Assembly (NCBI GenBank): GCA_965205505.1
Contig: CBDBHB010000008.1
Location: 960,001 to 1,024,000, forward strand
Source of the DNA: Acidobacteriota bacterium
GTDB lineage: Bacteria; Acidobacteriota; UBA890; WLXD01
DNA length: 64,000 nucleotides
Direction of reading: 5' to 3'
Shown here: positions 6,532-49,313 of the stretch, piece by piece
Numbering within the stretch: the first letter of the stretch is position 1
Layout: every line of letters starts with the position of its first letter
The notes under the pieces: generated by a model
Database searches by the model: none
What the model saw: the letters and a program-made list of their open reading frames with translations, nothing else
What the model was told of the DNA's origin: nothing
Position numbers and translations under genes: made by a program

Positions 6532-7209
6532 CTATAGCAGACCGTGGTGAAGAGTGTACGCCGTCCGTCGCGACCCCCCGAGACTCTCTCTGACAGCGGC
6601 AACGCACTCGACGCCGAGCGGCAGGTCTTGAGCCAGCAGCAGCCGCCGGTCCAACGTGCCGCGCAACAGACCGTCCTGAGAGTGGGAATGCTCTGGCACG
6701 ATAGCGTGGACGAGCTCATGCACGAGAATCCGAGCGAATGCCCGCGTCGTCCGATGATGACAACGTGTCCCGCCGCGACAATTGGCGCGTTGTCTGCCCC
6801 CCAGGACATGGAAGATCCGCTCCGGAAAGATGATGACGCGGCGTCCTAGCGCCCACCTGGGTACGAACATCCCCATCGCCCGTGCCTTCACACCCCACGC
6901 ACTGGGCGGTCTTGCCGTAAGCGTCACCAGGTAGGAATCCGCGGCGGCCGGACGCCAGAATTCGCTCTCGGCTTCGGCGCTGGTGGAATTCTCTCCAGAC
7001 CAGGTGGCGCGGATGCCGATCTCACTCAGGAGGGTTACAGCCTGGTCGCCCATGGCTACCAAGAAGCTCTCGTCGAAGCCGACGCGGTCCGAAATGACGA
7101 AGTGGAGATGCGGAACAGGATCGGACGCCGCTGGTTTCTTCCCCGATTCTCCAAGCCAGCCATGCAATGCGAGCGACACAACGAGATTCAACACGAGTAC
7201 CAGGTACAT
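6532..7209 (-). CDS. Hypothetical secreted protein with HExxH zincin-like motif
   Basis: Hydrophobic N-terminus; ARILVHELVHAIVPEHSH..GLLR. The final residues LHHGLL are encoded by a degenerate TIR. Confidence 0.65.
   Translation of the reverse strand: MYLVLVLNLVVSLALHGWLGESGKKPAASDPVPHLHFVISDRVGFDESFLVAMGDQAVTLLSEIGIRATWSGENSTSAEAESEFWRPAAADSYLVTLTARPPSAWGVKARAMGMFVPRWALGRRVIIFPERIFHVLGGRQRANCRGGTRCHHRTTRAFARILVHELVHAIVPEHSHSQDGLLRGTLDRRLLLAQDLPLGVECVAAVRESLGGSRRTAYTLHHGLL
6535..6557 (+). repeat. Degenerate orphan type-A element end
   Basis: TAG CAGACCGTGGTGAAGAGTGT versus consensus TAG CAGGCCGTGGTGAA-AGTGT. Confidence 0.7.
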
Positions 7210-7911: not shown

Positions 7912-9318
7912 TCAACTGACGATGTAGATCCCGTAGTTTGGGACCTGAATCCATTCGACGCCGTTGGGTCCGACCACTTGCGGATTCGAAAAGTTGATAG
8001 AGATCGGATATCCGGGCCGGTCCGGCAGGTTGGTGTGGACGGCGTATTCGAACGCGAAGATGTGGTTCGGGCGGATAACCAGGTCGTCCCGATCGCGGCG
8101 GAATGGCGCGATCGACGGCCCGACCGTCATGAGCTCGCCGTTGTTGTTGCCCTGGGCGTGAAGATCCAGGTAGAAACCGGGGCTGTCGGTGCCGGCGAGA
8201 TAATCCTGGACCATTCGGTAATCCTCTTCTCCATCGTCAGTGAAAGGCGTGTAGATGTATCCCTCCGCCTCCAGCGCGGCGACGATTTCCTCGAGCGCCT
8301 CTCCCGAGGTCATGCCGACCCGTACGTGCTCTCGCATGATTCCCTGCGCTCTCTTGCCGAAGTCCCAAGCCCGCTGGAGGCTCTCCGGAACTTCGGTCTC
8401 GCCGTCGCGAAGGATGTACGCCTGGAGCTTGGAGTCGACTGAAAACGAGGAGAACCCGAAGTCGAAGATCCGCTCGACACCGTAGTTGAGGCTGATGAAA
8501 TCACCGCCCTGAAGCACGTAGTTGCGACTGTGGGCCGGGGAGGAAGTCTGCGGCGCTGCCTTGCCTTCTGCAGTGGCCGAATAGAGGACGGAGCCACGGC
8601 GGAGGTCGCCGACCTTCGTCTTGCCGGGAACGATGCTCTCGAGTTGCGCGATCGCCGCCTGACGGGCGGCTTCGAGCGTGATCGCCTGGATGGCGACCTC
8701 GAGAGAGAGGCGGCGCGAGCGAAAATCGGTGATGAGATGCTCCGCCGATACGATCCGGGAGGAAAGCTCGGGCCCGAGGATTTGCTCGAGCTTTGTAAAT
8801 TGCGTGTGGGAAATGCTGTCAGCAACCGCCAGCCAATCGGAAACATTCACGGCGATCGTCTGCGGGTCGTGCGTTTCCACGTACTCTCTCAGCTCATCGT
8901 AGACCGCAAAATCCACGTTGCCGTGGTCGTAGCCGGTGAGAGCGCGTGAAATCTCCATCGATCCAAAGACGTCGATGTTTTCGATGGCGCCCCCTCCACC
9001 AAAGACCTCACCGAAGACTGCTCGTTCGACCCGATCGCCAAGGTCGGTGAAGATAATGAAACCGCCGATCCTGCCGAACTCGTAGGCGAGCGGATCGGGG
9101 TTGCCCTGGCGCGCGGCGTGAATCCACATGTCGACGTTGTTGTCGCGCATGGCGCTGGGGAGAATGAGATCGAGCCGGTCGTTGCGGATCAAGCGAAGCC
9201 ACTCGTCCTGATCAGGCTTCGGCATCTGCTCCTGTGCGCCGGCCGGTAGTCCGACGCCCAGCATGAACGCGATGAGGGCCAATACGAGGCGAGCTTGCAT
9301 CCTCCTGTCCTTCGTCAA
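7912..9318 (-). CDS. Exported M24-family (Xaa-Pro aminopeptidase-like) protein
   Basis: AMRDNNVDMWI, DPQTIAVN, ADSISHT, RIVSAE, DLHAQG, FAFEY; paralog of the genes at 26453 and 45498. Confidence 0.85.
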   Translation of the reverse strand: MTKDRRMQARLVLALIAFMLGVGLPAGAQEQMPKPDQDEWLRLIRNDRLDLILPSAMRDNNVDMWIHAARQGNPDPLAYEFGRIGGFIIFTDLGDRVERAVFGEVFGGGGAIENIDVFGSMEISRALTGYDHGNVDFAVYDELREYVETHDPQTIAVNVSDWLAVADSISHTQFTKLEQILGPELSSRIVSAEHLITDFRSRRLSLEVAIQAITLEAARQAAIAQLESIVPGKTKVGDLRRGSVLYSATAEGKAAPQTSSPAHSRNYVLQGGDFISLNYGVERIFDFGFSSFSVDSKLQAYILRDGETEVPESLQRAWDFGKRAQGIMREHVRVGMTSGEALEEIVAALEAEGYIYTPFTDDGEEDYRMVQDYLAGTDSPGFYLDLHAQGNNNGELMTVGPSIAPFRRDRDDLVIRPNHIFAFEYAVHTNLPDRPGYPISINFSNPQVVGPNGVEWIQVPNYGIYIVS

Positions 9319-11153
9319 CTTCCTTCGAGATCCTCTGTTACCAGGGTGACGTCGTCGCTGTTGCCGGTCATTTCCCAGCGAATGAGTGACATCGGTATGT
9401 TGCCGGCCGACAGGAACTCATCGACGAAATCACGAAGCACGAATTCGTCACCGAGCTTCTGCGCCCGTTCTCTGAACAGTTTCATGAAATAAGCCTTGCC
9501 GGTAACAACGTTGCTATGAAAGCCACCCGGGTTACGCAGGTTGGACTGCATTTCAAACCAGACCATACCTTCATCTTCTTGTGACCAGCCGCGCGGCATG
9601 ATCTCGGCACACAGACGCCTCGCCTCGGCCAGGTTGATCTCGTTGGCGTGCATTTTCATGTCCGGTATCGCGAGGCTCATATGCGAGGCATTCATCAAGT
9701 ATTCCATTTCCCTGCCCTTGCGCGGCCGATCGTCGAGTACGCCAGCCTGCATCAACAACTCCTCGAGTGCTACGGCCCAACCCTCGGTGCGCATCGAGTC
9801 CATGTTGTAGCGGCGCCCGGCGCTGCGGATCGGGCTCCTGGTCAGGCGCTCCTGTCTTTGAAAATCGAGCATGTGCCCAATGAACTCGTGGGTTTCGCCG
9901 GGCAGTATCTCGCGCTGGCGGACCTTGGTGTCGATACTCGTGTTTTCGGGCAGGAACCGGTCACTGGAATCGTCACCCTCTCGGGCGAGACGCTCATCGA
10001 GCTCAGCGAGGGTCTCGAAGCCCGTGTAGTCCGCTGGGTTCACCCAATCGTCGATGGTCATGATCTCTTCGTCGCGCAAGAAATCGACGACATGATTGAG
10101 CGCGTGGTACAGGCTGGTCTCGAATTCCTTTTCGTTCGAGGCTACCTGCAGGGGCGGCAGGTTGCGATTTCGGTGTTCTTCGAGCTTCAGGAACGTGATG
10201 ATGCGATCGTATTCTCTCTGGATAATCGCGTTGTTTTCTTCCCAGCCCCACGGAGACAACTGCACGTTGCGCATCCACCAGCTGTAGTTTTCCTTGCCGA
10301 TCCCGGCCGCGGCGGTCATCTCGTGCTTGGTCGCTTCCAGCCATTCGGCATAGTCACGTACCGCCTTCCCGGCGCCGAGCGCATCGGCCGCCAGGTCCGG
10401 ATGATGTTCCTCGAGCTGCGCGGCAATTCGGACATAGGTCTCGGCTTCGCGCGCAGAGTTCCGAACCGCGAGCTCGGCGAGATCAGCGGCCGCTTCGGTA
10501 AGGTTGGTCCTCGCCTGCACGTAGATTCCGGGGATAGCCCTCAGCGCCGCCCGGTATCGTGCCTTTTCGTCCTCCGAGAAAGGGGGTCGCAGGGAAAAGA
10601 GCGCAGACCTGAGGCTCGCGGCGTTCATTGACGCCCCCGCGTCTCCCCCTCTGATCGAATAGAAACCGGGGTCACGTGCCCAAGGCTTGAGCACCCGGTG
10701 ATGGAACTCCAGGGCGTTCATTTCGGCACGAACCAAGTGATAATCGACTCTTTGCCAGACGGGCCAATCACCCGTTTCCATCGCAGCCAGGCGCTCTTGA
10801 AACTGCTTCAGGCCACGGTATTGCTCTCTAATTGCGGCAGCGCTGTAGTCGGGTACGCCGTTGTTGTTGTTGGTTGATTCCTGAAATCCACGAAACTCAT
10901 CGAACAAACCCGCAAGATCGCCATAGTTGCTGCTGGTGGTGATTCTCCCGGGAATCTGCTTGCGGGGGAGGGCAAGGAGCGACGACGAGGCGATGCTGGA
11001 GTCATCGCGGGGGAGGAGCGGCGCCGCCAGTCGTCCGTAATTCCCACTTGCCCGTAGGGTTGTGCCGCCAACCAGATCCATCACACTTTCACCACGGCCT
11101 GCTAGCAATAGCATCACGGAACAAGTCGCACAAACAACGTACCGAGTTGACAT
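9315..11153 (-). CDS. DUF885-like exported protein with an element-derived N-terminal insert
   Basis: AGGAG RBS at start; VDYHLVRAEMN, PWARDPGFY, REILPGETH..GH, EGWA, F+DEFL..G.IP.SLIRWE. About 52 N-terminal codons derive from the repeat element. Confidence 0.82.
   Translation of the reverse strand: MSTRYVVCATCSVMLLLAGRGESVMDLVGGTTLRASGNYGRLAAPLLPRDDSSIASSSLLALPRKQIPGRITTSSNYGDLAGLFDEFRGFQESTNNNNGVPDYSAAAIREQYRGLKQFQERLAAMETGDWPVWQRVDYHLVRAEMNALEFHHRVLKPWARDPGFYSIRGGDAGASMNAASLRSALFSLRPPFSEDEKARYRAALRAIPGIYVQARTNLTEAAADLAELAVRNSAREAETYVRIAAQLEEHHPDLAADALGAGKAVRDYAEWLEATKHEMTAAAGIGKENYSWWMRNVQLSPWGWEENNAIIQREYDRIITFLKLEEHRNRNLPPLQVASNEKEFETSLYHALNHVVDFLRDEEIMTIDDWVNPADYTGFETLAELDERLAREGDDSSDRFLPENTSIDTKVRQREILPGETHEFIGHMLDFQRQERLTRSPIRSAGRRYNMDSMRTEGWAVALEELLMQAGVLDDRPRKGREMEYLMNASHMSLAIPDMKMHANEINLAEARRLCAEIMPRGWSQEDEGMVWFEMQSNLRNPGGFHSNVVTGKAYFMKLFRERAQKLGDEFVLRDFVDEFLSAGNIPMSLIRWEMTGNSDDVTLVTEDLEGS
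10950..11105 (-). mobile_element. Partial type-A miniature element read in frame inside the DUF885-like gene
   Basis: CTAG 11102-11105; TIR 11072-11101 (28/30 match); CCCTACGGG linker; core GCAAGG..GAGGCGATG-N7-CATCG..GAGGA at about 10972-11028. Second TIR absent. Confidence 0.85.
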
Positions 11154-11349
11154 GCTTGCGTCTCCTTTGCTTCCTATCCGAGGAATCGGCTGAGACTCAA
11201 TGACGGATGCGGAGTGTTGTGCATACCGATTCCCGGCGGCGATTGTATCGGCTCAGCGATTCTACGATGCCGAAAACCAACGGGCCCTACCATGCCGTGG
11301 CGGATCCGGCTCAGCGTGAGCCTCGAGGAAGCCGCCACGATGGCCCTGT

Positions 11350-11450
11350 TGTACTCCAGCCCGAACTTCGCACACCAGTACTGGATCGCCTCGTGCGAGA
11401 CGGTGACACCTCGCTCCGCGAGGAGAGCTTCGACGTCTCGGAGGCTTACA
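11350..11450 (+). mobile_element. Possible decayed IS (IS6-associated ORF-like) fragment at the island edge
   Basis: Translation ELRTPVLDRLVRDGDTSLREESFDVSEA resembles short ORFs I associate with IS6-family elements. Recognition from memory only. Confidence 0.3.
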
Positions 11451-11470
11451 GGCCGTGGTGATCTATCGGG

Positions 11471-12715
11471 CTATTCCCCCACGATGACGAGATCTAACGG
11501 AGACTTTAGAGGCTGATACGCAGTATCCGCTTTGAACATCAGCGTATCGACGTAATAGGTGATTCCTGACATGCGGGGCGAGAAACACTGGCTCTCGAAA
11601 TTAACGACTGTCCCCGGCTCAAACATCCTCTCCGTCTCGGTATCCGTCATCACGTAGACATAATTGCCGACCCAATCGGGCGGAAAGGCAACGCCGAGCT
11701 CATACCCGCCGACCCAGGCAGCATCGGACCAAATCCCGACCTCGTCGTAGTAGGCCCTGGTCTTGGTCACGAGCTCTGCAACCGGCAGGTTGGGACGCAG
11801 CATCTCGGCGATCACGTCGAAAACACCCGTGGAACGCCGGTGATAGTCCATCACGTCCTTGGCCGGTTCTCCGACATGAAATGACCGTCCGGCATTGCAA
11901 TGATAGCGGTTGAACACACCACTGACATCGACATTGACTTGTTCACCCGCCTTGATCACCTTTCGGCTGGCCAGCGAATGGCCGCAATTGGCTTTCAGCC
12001 CTGAATTCACCGGCAACGTGATTCCGGGGTTCTCTCCGCCCGCCTTCGCCATGGCATGAGCGATCTCGCCGTACACGTCGAGCTCGGTGACACCGGCCCG
12101 GATGGCATTCTTCGCCGCCTGCAAACCGATGTCGGTGATTTTCGCGGCCTTCTCGATACAGGCGATCTCGGCTTCCGATTTGACCCAACGAATATCGCGC
12201 AAGATATCGCTACCGTCGATCACGCTCATACCAGCACTCTCGAAGGCTTCCCAGAACCGCGTGCTGATCGCGGGATTGGGCCGATAGCTATGACATTCCA
12301 TTCCGACCGTGCCAGAAGACATCCAGCCCTGGGATTTCAGTTCGTCGATAATGAATGACATGCCATCGCGACGCCCGCCCAGCGGGAACATCCGGATGTC
12401 CGTCGCGCAGGTGACGAAGCGACACATGATGCCTTCGCTGGGCGTGTCGAACAGGATGAAATCGTCGCGGTCCTTGTGAATTGCAATTCCGCTCGTCGCG
12501 GGCCATTGTTTGGGGCCTTGCGCCTGATACCAGATGCATTTGTAGCCGCTCACATAGTAAAGGCTTTCGGGGGCCATGAGCCACAACACATCAATGCCGT
12601 TGCCGTCCATACGCGCACGGATGCGCTGAAGACGATGTTGACATTCTTCCAGGCTGAACGCCGGTTCGACCTCTGGCTGGCACTCCTGAAGGGCAAGATC
12701 TCGGTTTCTTCCCAA
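11471..12715 (-). CDS. M24/creatinase-fold hydrolase, DoeA/EutD (ectoine hydrolase)-like
   Basis: Creatinase N-domain (YYVSGY), RWVKSEAEI, SGVFNRYHC, GYELGVAFPPDW (compare DoeA GYSIGLSYPPDW). Confidence 0.8.
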   Translation of the reverse strand: MGRNRDLALQECQPEVEPAFSLEECQHRLQRIRARMDGNGIDVLWLMAPESLYYVSGYKCIWYQAQGPKQWPATSGIAIHKDRDDFILFDTPSEGIMCRFVTCATDIRMFPLGGRRDGMSFIIDELKSQGWMSSGTVGMECHSYRPNPAISTRFWEAFESAGMSVIDGSDILRDIRWVKSEAEIACIEKAAKITDIGLQAAKNAIRAGVTELDVYGEIAHAMAKAGGENPGITLPVNSGLKANCGHSLASRKVIKAGEQVNVDVSGVFNRYHCNAGRSFHVGEPAKDVMDYHRRSTGVFDVIAEMLRPNLPVAELVTKTRAYYDEVGIWSDAAWVGGYELGVAFPPDWVGNYVYVMTDTETERMFEPGTVVNFESQCFSPRMSGITYYVDTLMFKADTAYQPLKSPLDLVIVGE

Positions 12716-17223: not shown

Positions 17224-19194
17224 GTGGCACGCTTCGTACAGTTCCTCGCTATTTGTCTTTTGGTGAGCCTTGTTGCCGGGGCGCTGCCGGCAGCAACAAC
17301 ACCGTTACCACTACCGTCCCAAGACGAATGGCGCTACTTCGGTGGTGACAAGGGTTTCACACGCTACTCCCCGCACGATCAAATCCACCGCGACAACGTT
17401 AACGATTTGCGGATCGCCTGGCGTCGCCCGGCGGTGCGCGACGAACTTACAGAGGCGTTTCCTGATCTGTACCCCGATGCCTACCTGAGGGCGACGCCGA
17501 TCATGATCGACGGCGTGCTCTACACGCAGGATGCCCACGGTTTGGTAATCGCCCTCGATGGCGAGACCGGCGAGACCCTATGGGAACAGGAGCTCGTTGT
17601 GTCGACACTGGAAGAGGCCGACGCGTCGAGCACTCGTGGTGTTGATCACTGGAGCAGTGGCACCGGCGATGAGCGCATCCTCGCCATCCGAGGTGAGTAT
17701 CTCTACGCGCTCAATACCAGGACCGGCGAGCCTTACGCTGGTTTTGGCGATGACGGCAGGGTCAGCCTGCGGTTCCATGAGCGTCAGCCCTTGGCCCGTG
17801 CATTCAGCGACAGCACGGGTCCTCTCGTGGTGGGCAACGTCGTCGTGGTCACCGGGATCACGGGCGGAGCCGGCGATGGCGGTAACAAGAAGGAATCGGC
17901 GCCGGAGGATGTACGCGGCTTCGATGCTCAAACGGGCCGGTTGCTGTGGACGTTCCATCCGGTGCCGCGGGCGGGCGAGTTCGGCGCCGACACTTGGGGC
18001 GACGATTCTTGGAAGGTAGCAGGCGACCTCGGCGCCTGGGCTCTGATGACCGCGGACGAAGAGCTCGGTTATGTCTATATCGCGCTGTCAGCGCCGACGT
18101 CTGCTTGGTATGGCGGCTGGCGACCCGGTGACAATCTGTTCTCGAACACCTTGGTCGCTCTGGACGTGAAGACCGGCGAGCGCGTGTGGCACTTCCAGAT
18201 GATTCACCACGACCTCTGGGAATACGACAACATCGGTCCCGCGATACTCGGCGACATCACTGTCGACGGCAAGCGCATCAAGGCGGTGATGCAGCCGAAC
18301 AAGAATGCGTTTCTATTCGTCCTCGACCGTACCAACGGCGAGCCGGTGTGGCCGATCGAAGAGCGCCCGGTACCACGGTCGACGGTGCCCGGCGAGGAGT
18401 CCTCGCCGACGCAGCCGTTTCCGACCAAGCCGCCGCCCTTCGACCAACAGGGGATGACCGACAGCGACTTGATCGACTACACACCGGAGCTCAAGCAACG
18501 GGCGCGCGAGCTCGTCAAGGACTATCAACTCGGTCCGCTCTATACCCCACCGTCCGTGCCGAGCGATGAGCCGGGTGGAACGAAGGGGACGATCGTATAT
18601 CCGGGAGCGTGGGGCAACGGAAACTGGAACACCGGAGCCTTTGATCCCGAAACAGGAATCTACTACGCGGTCTCAAACACCTCGTATGGTCCGACAAACC
18701 GCGCTGTGGTCAAACAAACCGACCCGGAAGCGACGATGGAATATGCCTATGTCCCCAGCGCCCGACTCGAGCTCGACGGGCTCTTCTTCAACAAGGGGCC
18801 GTACGGCCGGATCACAGCCCTCGATCTCAACCGAGGCGAGCAGCTGTGGATGACCGCCAACGGCGATGGGCCACGCAACCATCCGTTGCTGAAGGATCTC
18901 AACCTACCGCCGCTGGGGAGTCCCAACCGTCCGGCTCCACTTGTCACCAAGACCCTGTTGTTCCTCGGCGAAGGCAGCAACGCCGTGAGCGGAACGCTGA
19001 ACGAGGACTGGGCATGGGGCAAGAAATTCCGTGCCTATGACAAGGCCACGGGTGATGTGATTTGGGAGATCGAGCTGCCGTCGGGGACCACCGCCGGCCC
19101 GATGACCTACATGCTCGACGGAAAACAGTACATCGTGGTGTCAATCGGAGCGCAGGATCACCCGGCGGAGTACGTCGCACTGGCGCTTCCATAG
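17224..19194 (+). CDS. PQQ-dependent (quinoprotein glucose dehydrogenase-like) enzyme
   Basis: W.YFGGD, ATPIMIDGVLY, GDNLFSNTLVALD, WHFQMIHHDLWEYD, PVWPIEERPVP, PMTYMLDGKQYI. Confidence 0.93.
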   Translation: MARFVQFLAICLLVSLVAGALPAATTPLPLPSQDEWRYFGGDKGFTRYSPHDQIHRDNVNDLRIAWRRPAVRDELTEAFPDLYPDAYLRATPIMIDGVLYTQDAHGLVIALDGETGETLWEQELVVSTLEEADASSTRGVDHWSSGTGDERILAIRGEYLYALNTRTGEPYAGFGDDGRVSLRFHERQPLARAFSDSTGPLVVGNVVVVTGITGGAGDGGNKKESAPEDVRGFDAQTGRLLWTFHPVPRAGEFGADTWGDDSWKVAGDLGAWALMTADEELGYVYIALSAPTSAWYGGWRPGDNLFSNTLVALDVKTGERVWHFQMIHHDLWEYDNIGPAILGDITVDGKRIKAVMQPNKNAFLFVLDRTNGEPVWPIEERPVPRSTVPGEESSPTQPFPTKPPPFDQQGMTDSDLIDYTPELKQRARELVKDYQLGPLYTPPSVPSDEPGGTKGTIVYPGAWGNGNWNTGAFDPETGIYYAVSNTSYGPTNRAVVKQTDPEATMEYAYVPSARLELDGLFFNKGPYGRITALDLNRGEQLWMTANGDGPRNHPLLKDLNLPPLGSPNRPAPLVTKTLLFLGEGSNAVSGTLNEDWAWGKKFRAYDKATGDVIWEIELPSGTTAGPMTYMLDGKQYIVVSIGAQDHPAEYVALALP

Positions 19195-19244
19195 CAGGGT
19201 GCGGAAGAGCTCTGGTGGATCTGGTTACGGCGTCGCGGGGCCAA
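19192..19244 (+). repeat. Type-B TIR plus the start of a type-A hairpin arm, forming the 5' end of the next ORF
   Basis: TAG (upstream stop) CAGGGTGCGGAAGAGCTCTGGTGGATCTGG (26/30 to type B), then TTACGGCG..GGGGCCA as in the 49035 copy. Confidence 0.8.
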
Positions 19245-26452: not shown

Positions 26453-27883
26453 TCAGCGGATGAGCCGTATTCCGGGGTCCGGCGGATAAGGGAACTCGAC
26501 GCCGTCTTCCGTCACTACCGCACCGTCATGGAAGGCGATGTAAATGTGCTTGCCCCTCCCCCACGCAGGTACTGGCATGTGGATCATGTACTCGAACGTG
26601 AAGGTGTGCAGCACCGGGATCGTCATCTCGCGTTCCCAGTCGGAGCCGAGCGGAGAAATCCTCGGAGCAACCAAGCCGCTTCGTCCCACGGCGTGCACAT
26701 CCAGATGCACCTGCGTCTTGTGAGGGTCGGCCGTCGAGTCGTATTGGTCGACCGGATTGTAGTGGTAGCCCGCCTCTTCGATCTTCCGGATCAGCAGGTC
26801 GAGGGTCTCCCCTGCCGTGCGCCCGGCAACGATGTTGTCGAGTAGCATCTGGCGGGTCTCGAGCGCAACTCGCCAGATCTCTTCGATCTCCGGCGGTGCT
26901 TCCGTCTCGCCCTCGCGCAGCAAGTAGGCGTTGCCCCCGAGGTCCGACGAGAAGATCCGGTTGCCGGCGCCGTGAAGAATCGTGAAGACGTCGCCCGGCT
27001 GCAGGACATAAGGCTGCGGATCTCCAGTGTGGAACTCGACGCCGTCAGGATCGCGGCGGAAAACGTTGCCCTCCAGGTCGCGGAGCTCGGTTACTCCCGG
27101 CACGACTTTGCCGAACTCGCGGTCGAGGTTGTCGGCAGCGATCAACCCGAACTGGCGATAAAGCTCGATCTCCTCGGCAACGCGACCCGCCAGGTAGTCG
27201 ATGATCAGGTGCTCGGCGGAGACCACGCGCCCGGCGTAGGTGTCGCCTAGCGCCTGCATCAAAAGGCCGTAGTCGGTGTGGGAGAGCCCGTCGGTCAGCG
27301 GGGCACGTTCCGACGCGGCCGAAAGCCCCAAATCCTCCGAGTAGTTGACGCCGATGCGGCGTGGGTCGCGTTCGGCCACGAATTCCCCCACACGGTCGAA
27401 GCGAAATTCCAGATGGTCGGTCTCATCGCCGCCGGGCTGCTCGGTGATCACACCGTCGACGAAGGTGGGCAGCTCCACGAGCGGCCGAGCGATGACGTCA
27501 TAGGCGTCTGCGTCGTCGACGTGTCCGGCGAACAGGGCCCGCTCTATTCGATCGGCTCCGCGGTCGGTGAAGACGAAGATCCCCGCGTCGCTCCCGAGCT
27601 CGAAGCTCAGCGGGTCGGGTGCCCACGGCCGCATGACATGAATCCACATGTCGATCTCGTTTTCCCGCATGATGCGCGGCAGAACCTGATCGAACTTGCT
27701 GTGGCGCACCTGGTTCTCAAGCGCCACCGAATCATCGGGCAGCACGGTGGAGGGATTCACCGTTTCGGGGTTCTGCGCCCTTGGCGGCGCAACCAGACCC
27801 ATCACACTTTCACCACGGCCTGCCAGCAGTGCCAAGAGAACGAAACAGCAAGCGGTGAGCTTCGAGAGTACGCCCATGGACAT
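26453..27883 (-). CDS. Exported M24-family protein with an element-derived segment in the signal peptide
   Basis: MRENEIDMWI, DPRRIGVN, DGLSHTD, RVVSAE, DVHAVG, TFEY; N-terminus contains LLAGRGESVMGLV. Confidence 0.87.
   Translation of the reverse strand: MSMGVLSKLTACCFVLLALLAGRGESVMGLVAPPRAQNPETVNPSTVLPDDSVALENQVRHSKFDQVLPRIMRENEIDMWIHVMRPWAPDPLSFELGSDAGIFVFTDRGADRIERALFAGHVDDADAYDVIARPLVELPTFVDGVITEQPGGDETDHLEFRFDRVGEFVAERDPRRIGVNYSEDLGLSAASERAPLTDGLSHTDYGLLMQALGDTYAGRVVSAEHLIIDYLAGRVAEEIELYRQFGLIAADNLDREFGKVVPGVTELRDLEGNVFRRDPDGVEFHTGDPQPYVLQPGDVFTILHGAGNRIFSSDLGGNAYLLREGETEAPPEIEEIWRVALETRQMLLDNIVAGRTAGETLDLLIRKIEEAGYHYNPVDQYDSTADPHKTQVHLDVHAVGRSGLVAPRISPLGSDWEREMTIPVLHTFTFEYMIHMPVPAWGRGKHIYIAFHDGAVVTEDGVEFPYPPDPGIRLIR
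27760..27826 (-). repeat. Type-A TIR and collapsed hairpin read in frame in the M24 gene
   Basis: CTGG (27823-27826) + TIR 27793-27822 (29/30), then GGTTGCGCC..GGCGCAGAACC and CCGAAACGG. Confidence 0.85.
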
Positions 27884-40166: not shown

Positions 40167-40347
40167 CTAGCAGGGTGCTGAAAAACTCTGGTGGGTCTGG
40201 CGCGTGGGTCTTGCTGGCGAGATCAAGGAAGAGCGACGATGGCGATGCCAGGGCGCATCGTCGAGGAGCTCTGACGCTGAGATCGTCGGCAACCCCCATG
40301 CGCCTTACAGGTTACAGACCCACCAGAGTTTTTCAGCACCCTGCTAT
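40167..40347. mobile_element. Complete type-B miniature inverted-repeat element
   Basis: Perfect 29-bp TIRs (40171-40199 and 40315-40343), flanked by CTAG and CTAT; one long internal hairpin; abuts the TAG stop of the DUF1501 gene. Confidence 0.9.
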
Positions 40348-45292: not shown

Positions 45293-45497
45293 CGAGCTCA
45301 CCAAGTCCGCGGCGCCACATCGGCACCGCCCTGTGAGTGGGTCGCCAAGGGGCCAGTAGACCACCGAGCATCAAGCATCATTCGAATCTGGGAGTCTCAC
45401 CTGCACTTCCGAGAGGAGCATGATAGTAGCTGGCTCGTTCCTTGTGGGAAGGAGCGACCCGGTTAGGCTCGAACGCGGGTTCGAGAAAGGAGTAACT

Positions 45498-46835
45498 GTG
45501 ACTAGTGCACGATTGCTAGCCGTGTGTTGGGCTCTCGCTGGTCTCGCGATCGGCCTGGAATCCCACGCGCAGGAGTCGAAACAAAACTACGAGATCATGA
45601 GGCTCATACGTCACGAGAAAATGGATCTCATCCTGCCGGGCGCCCTGCGCGACAACAACGTCGACATGTGGATTCACGTCGTACAGAGCGGCAATATGGA
45701 TCCTCTTGCGCTGGACTTGGGCGGTTGGTTCGAATACCGAGCTTGGGAGCCGTTCGGCTACTACATCTTTACGGATCGGGGTGGTGACAGGATCGAGCGG
45801 ATAATCCTGGGTGGCGAGGACCAGGAAGGTCTCTATGACATTTCCGGTTCGGGAAGCGACCTACTGAAGCTGGTCGAGGAGCGCGATCCGGAGGTGATCG
45901 CCGTCAACATGTCGACCTCGCTTCCCATCGCGAACGGTCTTTCTCATACGGCGTACATGAGCATGATCGCAGCGTTGGGCGAGAAATACGCCCAGAGAAT
46001 CGTCTCTGCAGAACAGGTGACCACCGACTTCCGGGTCAGACGAGTGCAGCGGGAGATCATCGCATTCGCAAACGCGCTGGAGATCCAGCGACAGATCATG
46101 GAGGCGGCCCTACGGAGGATCAGACCCGGAATCACAACTCCTGAAGAAATCGGCTGGTGGGCGGCCGACCAGCTACTGGAGCAAGGAATCGGCCCCTCCT
46201 ATCAAGCGGCGACTCTGTTTCTGCCCTACATGCCGGGAGGCGCCCGAGATGGCGTGTATCAGCGCGGCGCGTTCATATCCTGGGACATGGGTATCGGTTA
46301 CTTGAACTTCGGTACCGACATCAAGCGAAACGCGTATGTCCTGAGGGACGATGAGACGGACATACCCGACGGACTAAGGCACGCCTGGGACCGCGGCATG
46401 AAGGCGCGCGAGATTCTTCGGAAGACGTTCAAGGCCGGCAGGACGGCAGGAGAATCTCTCGAGGCGATCGTCGCTGCCCTGGAAGCAGCCGATTATGTGT
46501 ATACGCCTTCCGACGATCGGACCTCGCAATACAGAGACCTGGTGACAGAGCTCGGAGACGACGAGAGGTCGGGGTTCTCGATCGACTTCCATGCCACCGG
46601 AAACACCAGCGTCGGCGACGCCACGGCAGGCCCCTCGATAGCGCCGTGGCGTTCGACGACGACCCATATCACAGTGCAGCCGAACTACATCTTCTCGCTC
46701 GAGTTCGAGCTCAATACATGGGTTCCGGAATGGAATCGGCGCATAGGCATCAACTTCGAAGACAACGCGATTGTCACCAACCTCGGTGTTGAATACCTGA
46801 GTCCTATAAACGAAAGGATCATCATCATCCGCTAG
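45498..46835 (+). CDS. Exported M24-family protein (third paralog)
   Basis: LRDNNVDMWI, DPEVIAVN, GLSHT, TDIKRNAYVL, DFHATG, SLEF, NFEDN; AAGGAG RBS. Confidence 0.87.
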   Translation: MTSARLLAVCWALAGLAIGLESHAQESKQNYEIMRLIRHEKMDLILPGALRDNNVDMWIHVVQSGNMDPLALDLGGWFEYRAWEPFGYYIFTDRGGDRIERIILGGEDQEGLYDISGSGSDLLKLVEERDPEVIAVNMSTSLPIANGLSHTAYMSMIAALGEKYAQRIVSAEQVTTDFRVRRVQREIIAFANALEIQRQIMEAALRRIRPGITTPEEIGWWAADQLLEQGIGPSYQAATLFLPYMPGGARDGVYQRGAFISWDMGIGYLNFGTDIKRNAYVLRDDETDIPDGLRHAWDRGMKAREILRKTFKAGRTAGESLEAIVAALEAADYVYTPSDDRTSQYRDLVTELGDDERSGFSIDFHATGNTSVGDATAGPSIAPWRSTTTHITVQPNYIFSLEFELNTWVPEWNRRIGINFEDNAIVTNLGVEYLSPINERIIIIR

Positions 46836-49034: not shown

Positions 49035-49313
49035 CTAGCAGGCCGTGGTGAAAGTGTGGTGGGTCTGGTTACGGCGAGTTGGGGCCAGATGCAAGGCGGC
49101 CTGACACAGGCGATGCCCTAGCCATCGTCGAGGAAGGCCAACGCCGCAAATGGCCCCAAATCGCCGTAACCCTTCGGGCGACAGGGGGTTGCGCGCGTAT
49201 GCTGCGTCGTTCCTCGTCAACGATGCGGTACCCATCGCCTCCTCCTCTCTCCTTGCCTCCACTTCGCAACACCCTGTCGCCAGACCCACCACACTTTCAC
49301 CACGGCCTACTAG
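49035..49313. mobile_element. Complete type-A miniature inverted-repeat element (279 bp including both CTAG)
   Basis: 30-bp TIRs (29/30 complementary), CTAG on both sides, two long internal hairpins joined by CCCTTCGGG. Confidence 0.92.

Follow-up and report, generated by a model that had tools for sequence, protein, structure and literature searches.

The DUF885 gene and its surroundings

The window analyzed here, a stretch of 64,000 nucleotides from an Acidobacteriota bacterium, carries on its minus strand an ORF of 612 amino acids (11153 to 9315) that is free of stops, begins MSTRYVVCATCSVMLLLAGRGESV, and belongs to the DUF885 family (Pfam code PF05960; 86 bits against a cut-off of 32.4). 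A strong AGGAG, already recognized in the original prediction, which was made from the DNA letters alone, lies 8 nt upstream of its start at 11153. The signal-peptide features, namely, a charged n-region (R4) and a hydrophobic h-region, are both present, with a peak 11-residue hydropathy of 2.49 versus 2.69 in P0002, the nearest ortholog without the insertion described below. Directly behind the h-region the ORF enters the end of a MITE at a CTAG as LAGRGESV and runs stop-free into the DUF885 body; this much had been claimed from the start, and both the sequence and Pfam bear it out. The parts of the locus are as follows.

11162..11166, minus strand: ribosome-binding motif AGGAG, 8 nt 5' of the ATG at 11153, read from the sequence
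11106..11153, minus strand: n- and h-regions of the host gene's signal peptide (M1-L16), with homology to the N terminus of the empty ortholog P0002
11102..11105, minus strand: left copy of the target site CTAG (codon L17 and the first base of A18)
11072..11101, minus strand: left TIR of the MITE, element positions 1 to 30, reading (A)GRGESVMDL
10959..11071, minus strand: element positions 119 to 231, comprising the last part of the otherwise deleted left hairpin and the greater part of the right one, reading GGTTLRASG...IASSSLLALPRK
10926..10958, minus strand: junction linker Q66-N76, unalignable to the element; probably host, with only SSN clearly so
9315..10925, minus strand: DUF885 body Y77-S612, intact and conserved by Pfam, the conserved-column count, and Foldseek

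A scan of positions 10900 to 11520 for promoters and terminators found none. Between the DUF885 gene and an upstream peptidase gene lie short ORFs (11214 to 11460) that we take to resemble a fragment of an IS6-type transposase; Pfam gave no match for one of them. The window also has a cluster of peptidase genes of the M24-like and M19 types (7912 to 9318, 11471 to 12715, 26453 to 27883, and 45420 to 46835), many of which encode signal peptides.

A pruned element within the coding frame

The element-derived stretch spans L17 to K65, i.e., 49 codons including the CTAG, and similarity to the element stops at 10959 in both blastn and nhmmer searches. Of the 52 element codons originally proposed, the in-frame stretch itself stands, but the last three (QIP) cannot be aligned to the element. 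Within the window, the repeat end at 11105 to 11070 has its match in a free copy starting at 49035, with 34 of 36 nt identical (E = 9e-11). The interior is 88% identical over 102 nt (E = 1e-32) to the 270-nt copy in locus L001, the nearest element copy found, and a profile of the element matches 11070 to 10959 (nhmmer, E = 4.5e-21). The repeat-end and the 102-nt interior matches are far beyond what chance would produce.

The remnant consists of element positions 1 to 30 joined to positions 119 to 231, with the 88 to 90 nt of the left hairpin deleted between them; it is devoid of the right TIR and of a second CTAG and retains 143 of the approximately 271 nt of the element. The repeat end and the loss of the far TIR, for which alignment provides confirmation, had both been recognized correctly, while the internal deletion had been overlooked. 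A candidate decayed right TIR (QIPGRITT) showed only a partial alignment, far below the 88% of the rest, and was rejected. Loss of the left hairpin recurs, with different breakpoints, in free copies of 157 to 171 nt; hence, this deletion is by itself no sign of selection.

Full copies of the element fold strongly (z = -17.7 and -12.5) into a TIR stem bearing two internal hairpins, whereas the 156-nt remnant folds no better than shuffled sequences (z = +1.6) and, contrary to the “hairpin core” seen in it originally, is no longer a hairpin. The 113-nt part that it shares with other copies has a z-score of -0.2 in the remnant versus -2.2 in L001 and -1.9 in L047. At the protein level, the structure model has residues 19 to 64 at a pLDDT of <50 and without secondary structure, between helices at 3 to 17 and 77 to 92; such low values are expected where the underlying alignment has no rows. 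By the -3,-1 rule, the small residues at A18, G19, G21, and S23 are presumably candidate cleavage sites.

The parent MITE family

The parent, here termed family A, is a bacterial MITE: it has TIRs, duplicates CTAG, and is short, transposase-free, dispersed, and structured. Among 34 two-ended copies (counted after one duplicate row was dropped), 24 are 269 to 273 nt long, and the remaining 10 are deletion derivatives of 29 to 201 nt. Free copies have TIRs of about 30 to 36 nt, and most two-ended ones are flanked by CTAG on both sides; over the window and the 66 loci listed, CTAG precedes 82 of 112 family-A TIR-like sites. These loci come from a scan of genome contigs with a 20-nt TIR, which recovered at least 66 loci in at least 10 assemblies, and their titles name Acidobacteriota or Acidobacteria in 52 instances, an uncultured bacterium in 13, and Myxococcales in 1. 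Two of the 66 are orthologous to stretches of the window (83 to 96% identity), which points to a host that is probably acidobacterial. Within the window, family-A ends also occur at 1282, 2652, 27826, 49035, and 49313. Two free elements deserve separate listing.

49035..49313, plus strand: free full-length family-A copy, 271 nt between the CTAG copies, intergenic; belongs to a sister subfamily and is not the direct parent of the remnant
40167..40347, plus strand: member of family B, a shorter, related MITE with TIRs nearer to IS5-family ends

Several further observations concern the dispersal of these elements. The two family-A TIRs at 1282 to 2652 face inward, are each accompanied by CTAG, and flank a gene of the Rid family with three domains; this could be either a gene-carrying cassette or two pruned copies. 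At 6532 to 6557, the window has a degenerate TIR (6535 to 6557) where the relative L002 has a different, longer remnant. Four loci (L006, L021, L039, and L056) have a mini-element of 29 nt in which TIR ends are fused, outside called genes in the frame concerned; together with CTAG it amounts to 33 nt, is open, and would add 11 codons in frame. In genes of L006, L062, and L011, the TIR supplies the last codons and the stop (...SRPW*, ...QAVVKV*, and ...LHHGLL*).

As for the enzyme that moves the family, plasmid searches with the full element and with the family-A TIR found no relative, and no transposase with family-A ends was found in these searches or in the loci scanned; none was present among 49 TIR-adjacent ORFs scanned out of the 764 ORFs listed from the loci. 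Of five plasmid matches opened, the sole IS was an element on Methylocella tundrae plasmid 3 (L067), flanked by CTAG on both sides. Its transposase (WP_134493465.1) has the DUF772 and DDE_Tnp_1 domains and scores above the cut-off of NCBIfam transpos_IS5_4. The family-B end matches that of this IS5-family element in 22 of 24 nt, while the family-A match is looser. Because family-B ends match a CTAG-flanked IS5-family element, we regard mobilization of family A by an IS5-type transposase as likely on the basis of these sequence matches. Unlike the MITE, the Methylocella element is autonomous and alphaproteobacterial, which makes it a model of the partner and not the cognate transposase.

The family mostly survives where it is harmless, given that CTAG and the TIR mostly lie at gene stops and that only one locus has a broken gene: CTAG is the gene's stop codon in 17 of the 66 loci listed, and in 3 the gene ends within the TIR. 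The exception is L055 (2497 to 2775), where a full copy at CTA|G breaks a xanthine/uracil permease gene, the reading frame of which passes through LAGRGESV and ends at a stop after 43 codons. This is the disruptive precursor state.

Empty orthologs, a twin allele, and the state of the host gene

The expectation that orthologs would be without the segment is borne out by 119 of the 120 homologs listed, the sole carrier among those being P0001. In P0002, which is about 87% identical in the aligned part, the signal core leads straight into the first helix, and the net gain of the focal protein over it is 47 aa (612 versus 565). The spacer preceding the first conserved motif, which could be measured in 116 of the 120 listed homologs, has a median of 38 residues and a range of 26 to 65 without the insert, as opposed to 82 with it.

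The twin, P0001, is identical to the focal protein at 605 of 612 positions (99%), with an identical signal peptide and the same insert; the substitutions fall at positions 41, 45, and 69, with four more in the body. These differences amount to 3 of 60 residues in the insert plus linker versus 4 of 536 in the body (P = 0.025), or, when the count is restricted to codons of element origin, 2 of 49 versus 4 of 536, which is not significant (P = 0.08). The remnant's differences from L001 are spread evenly over codon positions (5/5/5), as expected if the peptide has no constraint of its own, a sequence-level signal that is confounded by the occurrence of N38, Y39, and L42 in other element copies too. 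Of the checks originally suggested, a protein search was carried out in word-indexed form with residues 14 to 72 and yielded P0001 alone among 112 candidates; a TIR peptide of 11 residues does not attain the E-value limit of this search, so that short remnants escape it.

The twin also bears on whether the insert is an artifact. A multicopy element family might invite repeat-induced misassembly; however, P0001 was deposited independently and has the same insert despite seven differences, the empty ortholog is collinear on either side of the insert, and the remnant is unlike every other copy in the window. Since a 99% identical protein has the insert, we consider misassembly highly improbable.

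The DUF885 body likewise appears sound. It departs from 2 of 237 conserved columns, defined as those shared by 90% or more of 57 homologs; under the same scoring, eleven homologs depart at 0 to 3. Its 536 codons contain no stop or frameshift in either of two strains. The best Foldseek matches of its model are 3U24, 3IUK, and 3O0Y (E ≤ 1.5e-8), the fold of solved members. Relative-rate tests against P0002 and P0003 were nonsignificant in 10 of 12 comparisons (5 of 6 outgroups each); with the outgroup P0008, the focal body was faster in both tests (P = 0.03 to 0.04). Relaxed selection, raised originally as an outcome that would speak against the case, was not seen. This evidence also bears on the idea that the gene has recently turned into a pseudogene or lost its export, with a frame that stays open by chance (1 in 3). 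Displacement or deletion of the ancestral c-region and the faster body with one outgroup would be in keeping with such an allele; nevertheless, the insert went through two deletions and up to 12% divergence during which the body kept 235 of the 237 conserved columns and an unbroken frame in two strains. Such an allele strikes us as improbable, and, judging from these comparisons, the remnant, which is real and in frame, very probably lies in a working gene.

Entry frame, target site, and frame history

The peptide at the entry point is dictated by the element. When CTAG is entered in the forward direction, one frame gives LAGRGESV and the others stop at TAG or at a TGA within the TIR. The alanine codon consists of the G of CTAG and the first two bases of the element. 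Accordingly, as LAGRGESV is the sole open forward entry frame, the Leu-Ala pair is made by the element itself, and the original view that CTAG occurs at existing Leu-Ala codons of signal peptides does not hold.

The corollary that such CTAG sites direct insertions into signal peptides proved overstated. In a census of 273 roughly called genes from the window and the loci, 83 of them with a signal-like N terminus by a hydropathy rule, in-frame CTA|G occurred at 6 of 3,320 codons in signal-type N termini versus 57 of 77,448 body codons (2.5-fold, P = 0.045), and signal-type N termini hold 6 of the 70 in-frame sites. This mild enrichment is not enough to account for 2 of 2 window cases at signal peptides, and the position reflects survival and tolerance more than targeting.

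It had further been supposed that deletion restored the reading frame. Deletions are indeed present, but restoration may have been needless, as there are variants open over 92 codons. Two proteins from a profile search, P0244 and P0246, begin at the ATG of the TIR and stay open for 85 residues, across the far TIR, and a variant of this type has 92 stop-free codons per element plus CTAG; two further ORFs from that search are open from the left arm onward, and in L052 the TIR and mid-element share one frame. Starting from the open 92-codon variant, the focal deletion equals exactly 30 codons. On the other hand, P0244 and P0246 come from a search biased toward open frames, and among the 24 full-length DNA copies a single one combines a length divisible by three with an open frame; both 272-nt copies carry stops, the 270-nt copy of L001 would frameshift, and P0243 is also out of frame. 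We give slightly better than even chances to an insert that was in frame from the start (an open 272-nt variant that later lost 30 codons), as opposed to a rescued frameshift.

A second remnant and the frequency of read-through

The window contains a second case, in an M24-like peptidase gene (26453 to 27883).

27772..27826, minus strand: another remnant in the coding frame, made up of the left TIR and some 20 nt of the left arm; it adds a net 13 codons (LAGRGESVMGLVA) where the signal peptide ends

The gene reads CCFVLLAL-LAGRGESVMGLVA-PPRAQNPE and keeps about 50 of the 271 nt of the element. Its ortholog in L035 is empty, with 39 nt fewer at the insert site. The GRGES peptide is present in 0 of the 120 M24 homologs listed, the closest of which read LLALPLRAQNPE or similar, and no independent twin of the insert was found among them. 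At the junction, a 9-nt stretch is common to the left arm of the element (in this subfamily) and to the empty site, which at the sequence level fits a deletion between short repeats. As the left arm of the M24 copy is the reverse complement of the arm that the DUF885 copy has kept, the two come from the same subfamily. The broader original claim, that element-derived peptides can persist in exported proteins, thus gains a second example in the window, but none in the 66 listed loci.

Forward read-through was found in 0 of these 66 loci (upper 95% bound, 4.4%), though both window cases match the scanned pattern. The contrast with the window, where 2 of 4 to 5 family-A elements are read through, has a P value of 0.004, or 0.057 without the case that the original prediction had itself singled out. 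In L042 (2497 to 2554), a solo TIR in reverse (HPEPPHFHHGLL), with 54 nt between two CTAG copies, lies in a DUF5605-like ORF and may represent read-through in the reverse orientation; it is outside a signal peptide, has no empty ortholog, and follows an upstream long ORF that ends just before the TIR. A profile search of 1.84 billion representatives found none combining a signal peptide, the element, and a domain, in a collection whose 50% clustering can hide alleles. Among its 23 matches, 18 were element derived (mostly short ORFs starting in the element, with one C-terminal run-on of a helicase), and 5 were unrelated repeat proteins.

Family B provides a possible variation. At 19192 to 19243, its TIR lies at the stop codon of a gene at 17224 to 19194, and the reading frame that begins at a GTG within it (19199) leads without a shift into the signal peptide of a PQQ-propeller gene, for which no empty ortholog was found. 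From this arrangement, the element may supply the start and n-region of the latter gene. At 1279, 39358, and 49150, ORFs seem to extend into elements, but they have better native starts farther downstream and were left out of the count, and an element-derived C terminus in L038 was rejected on reading of the sequence.

The two remnants allow two further readings to be weighed. In both, GGTGA lies 7 nt 5' of an in-frame ATG; in the DUF885 gene, GGTGA at 11093 to 11089 and an in-frame GTG-ATG (ATG at 11081) form a possible second start. GGUGA can pair with the 16S tail. Part or all of translation might hence begin in the TIR (at 11081, and at 27802 in the M24 gene), giving a cytoplasmic protein for which the signal peptide is bypassed, or a second isoform. 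A codon-score gene caller picked the ATGs inside the TIRs, and the native M24 start is without a clear SD; however, such callers often clip signal peptides, and the same caller clipped others. Moreover, the strong AGGAG is kept at the native DUF885 start, the signal peptide is identical in P0001, and an exported enzyme so relocated should show the relaxed selection that was not seen. We deem a takeover of this kind unlikely.

Alternatively, the TIR could be preadapted, with LA-GRGES extending the h-region and providing a new cleavage site, such that insertions at signal-peptide ends are favored or useful. Both window cases lie 2 to 6 residues N-terminal to the putative ancestral cleavage site, with LAGRGESVM in common, and, were every in-frame CTA|G site equivalent, the chance of finding 2 of 2 in signal-type N termini would be about 0.007. 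Yet, there are only two cases, one of them chosen by the original prediction; 0 of the 66 loci listed show the same, plain tolerance would produce this very pattern, and L042 is perhaps a read-through elsewhere in a protein. We are a shade more skeptical of preadaptation than of a relocated start. A reading that joins the two would have the left TIR act as a portable module, bringing a new signal-peptidase region and an internal start and repeatedly rewriting the N termini of exported enzymes. It would cover the DUF885 and M24 genes, perhaps the PQQ-propeller gene at 19199, and the open 92-codon variant, possibly with exported and cytoplasmic isoforms from one gene; we think it about as doubtful as the relocated start.

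Proposed history of the insertion

Taking these findings together, we propose that a nonautonomous MITE, for which an IS5-family transposase probably acted in trans, entered the DUF885 gene at a CTA|G where the signal-peptide core ends; its single open entry frame makes the protein read LAGRGESV. The left hairpin and the right TIR were then lost through deletions, apparently between short stretches of shared sequence, and with them the mobility of the copy and its RNA structure; the losses themselves are evident from the alignment, and their order and cause are conjectural. The allele would have survived by virtue of its position between the signal peptide and the first body helix. Because the insert sits in a spacer where the family tolerates 26 to 65 residues, the protein most likely continues to be exported; the added stretch of about 45 to 55 residues would be unstructured and presumably has no function by itself. 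We consider this account as a whole, from an IS5-moved insertion behind the signal core through pruning to a tolerated peptide in a host that is most likely exported, to be probable. In its essentials it agrees with the original prediction that a conserved, probably exported protein has retained an element-derived peptide in frame just where its signal-peptide core ends.

The locus offers an uncommonly well documented snapshot of transposon exonization in a bacterium: the target site and the parent family are visible, as are empty orthologs, an independent twin allele, the deletion junctions, and, in L055, the disruptive precursor state. It suggests that the junction between signal peptide and mature protein is a sink for MITE remnants, and such remnants mislead the annotation of start sites and signal peptides. 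That parasitic DNA can add a tolerated peptide to proteins by this route is known already, and the present locus is a clean further case; its importance would grow if the cleavage site or a second start came from the TIR, or if there were many cases genome-wide.

Relationship to known systems

In the literature searched, which included few subscription papers and no supplements, the family is undescribed, and no MITE remnants at signal-peptide c-regions were found. As a mobile element, it is reminiscent of MITEPsy1 of Pseudomonas syringae, described in the available text as a 100-nt element that duplicates CTAG or YTAA and whose ends tie it to an IS5-family element (PMC3189936). Both are short CTAG-duplicating MITEs whose ends suggest a link to IS5, a likely one in the case of family A; however, the TIR sequences differ, and MITEPsy1 insertions disrupt genes, the phrase “in frame” being absent from that text (PMC3189936).

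In-frame MITE fusions are already known, namely, those of RPE and YPAL. In the YPAL/RU-2 fusion YPO1552 of Yersinia, the accessible accounts place a peptide that stems from a MITE within, or adjacent to, a predicted signal peptide (PMC2759123, PMC2229807). Here, too, a MITE peptide lies at the predicted signal peptide of a putative exported protein. As far as those accounts go, the element there forms part of the signal in a small, possibly new ORF, whereas in the DUF885 gene a long-standing conserved gene with empty orthologs was interrupted and the host n- and h-regions were kept.

The RPEs, which the original prediction rightly took as its model, are described in the text available as hairpin-forming MITE-type repeats read in frame inside conserved genes (PMC2229807, PMC10969869), with host function tolerated in the case of gmk (PMC2229807). 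RPEs of three families, 105 to 146 nt long, lie within ORFs in nearly half of cases (PMC2229807, PMC10969869). In-frame coding repeats had been called rare on that occasion; a 2024 review, in the part accessible, terms in-frame MITE fusions “not unusual” (PMC10969869). By these descriptions, the DUF885 remnant shares with RPEs its origin in a hairpin MITE-type repeat, its in-frame position in a conserved gene, and the existence of empty orthologs. It differs in that read-through is rare here (2 of 4 to 5 family-A elements in the window and 0 to 1 of the 66 loci listed), in that the copy is pruned (143 of about 271 nt) and unfolded, without the whole palindrome retained, and in that CTAG duplication points to IS5-type mobility, with both cases situated at signal-peptide ends. 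The element thus works like an RPE-type coding repeat, yet departs from it in two features, the share of copies in ORFs and the keeping of the whole element, and it extends in-frame MITE remnants to the Acidobacteriota.
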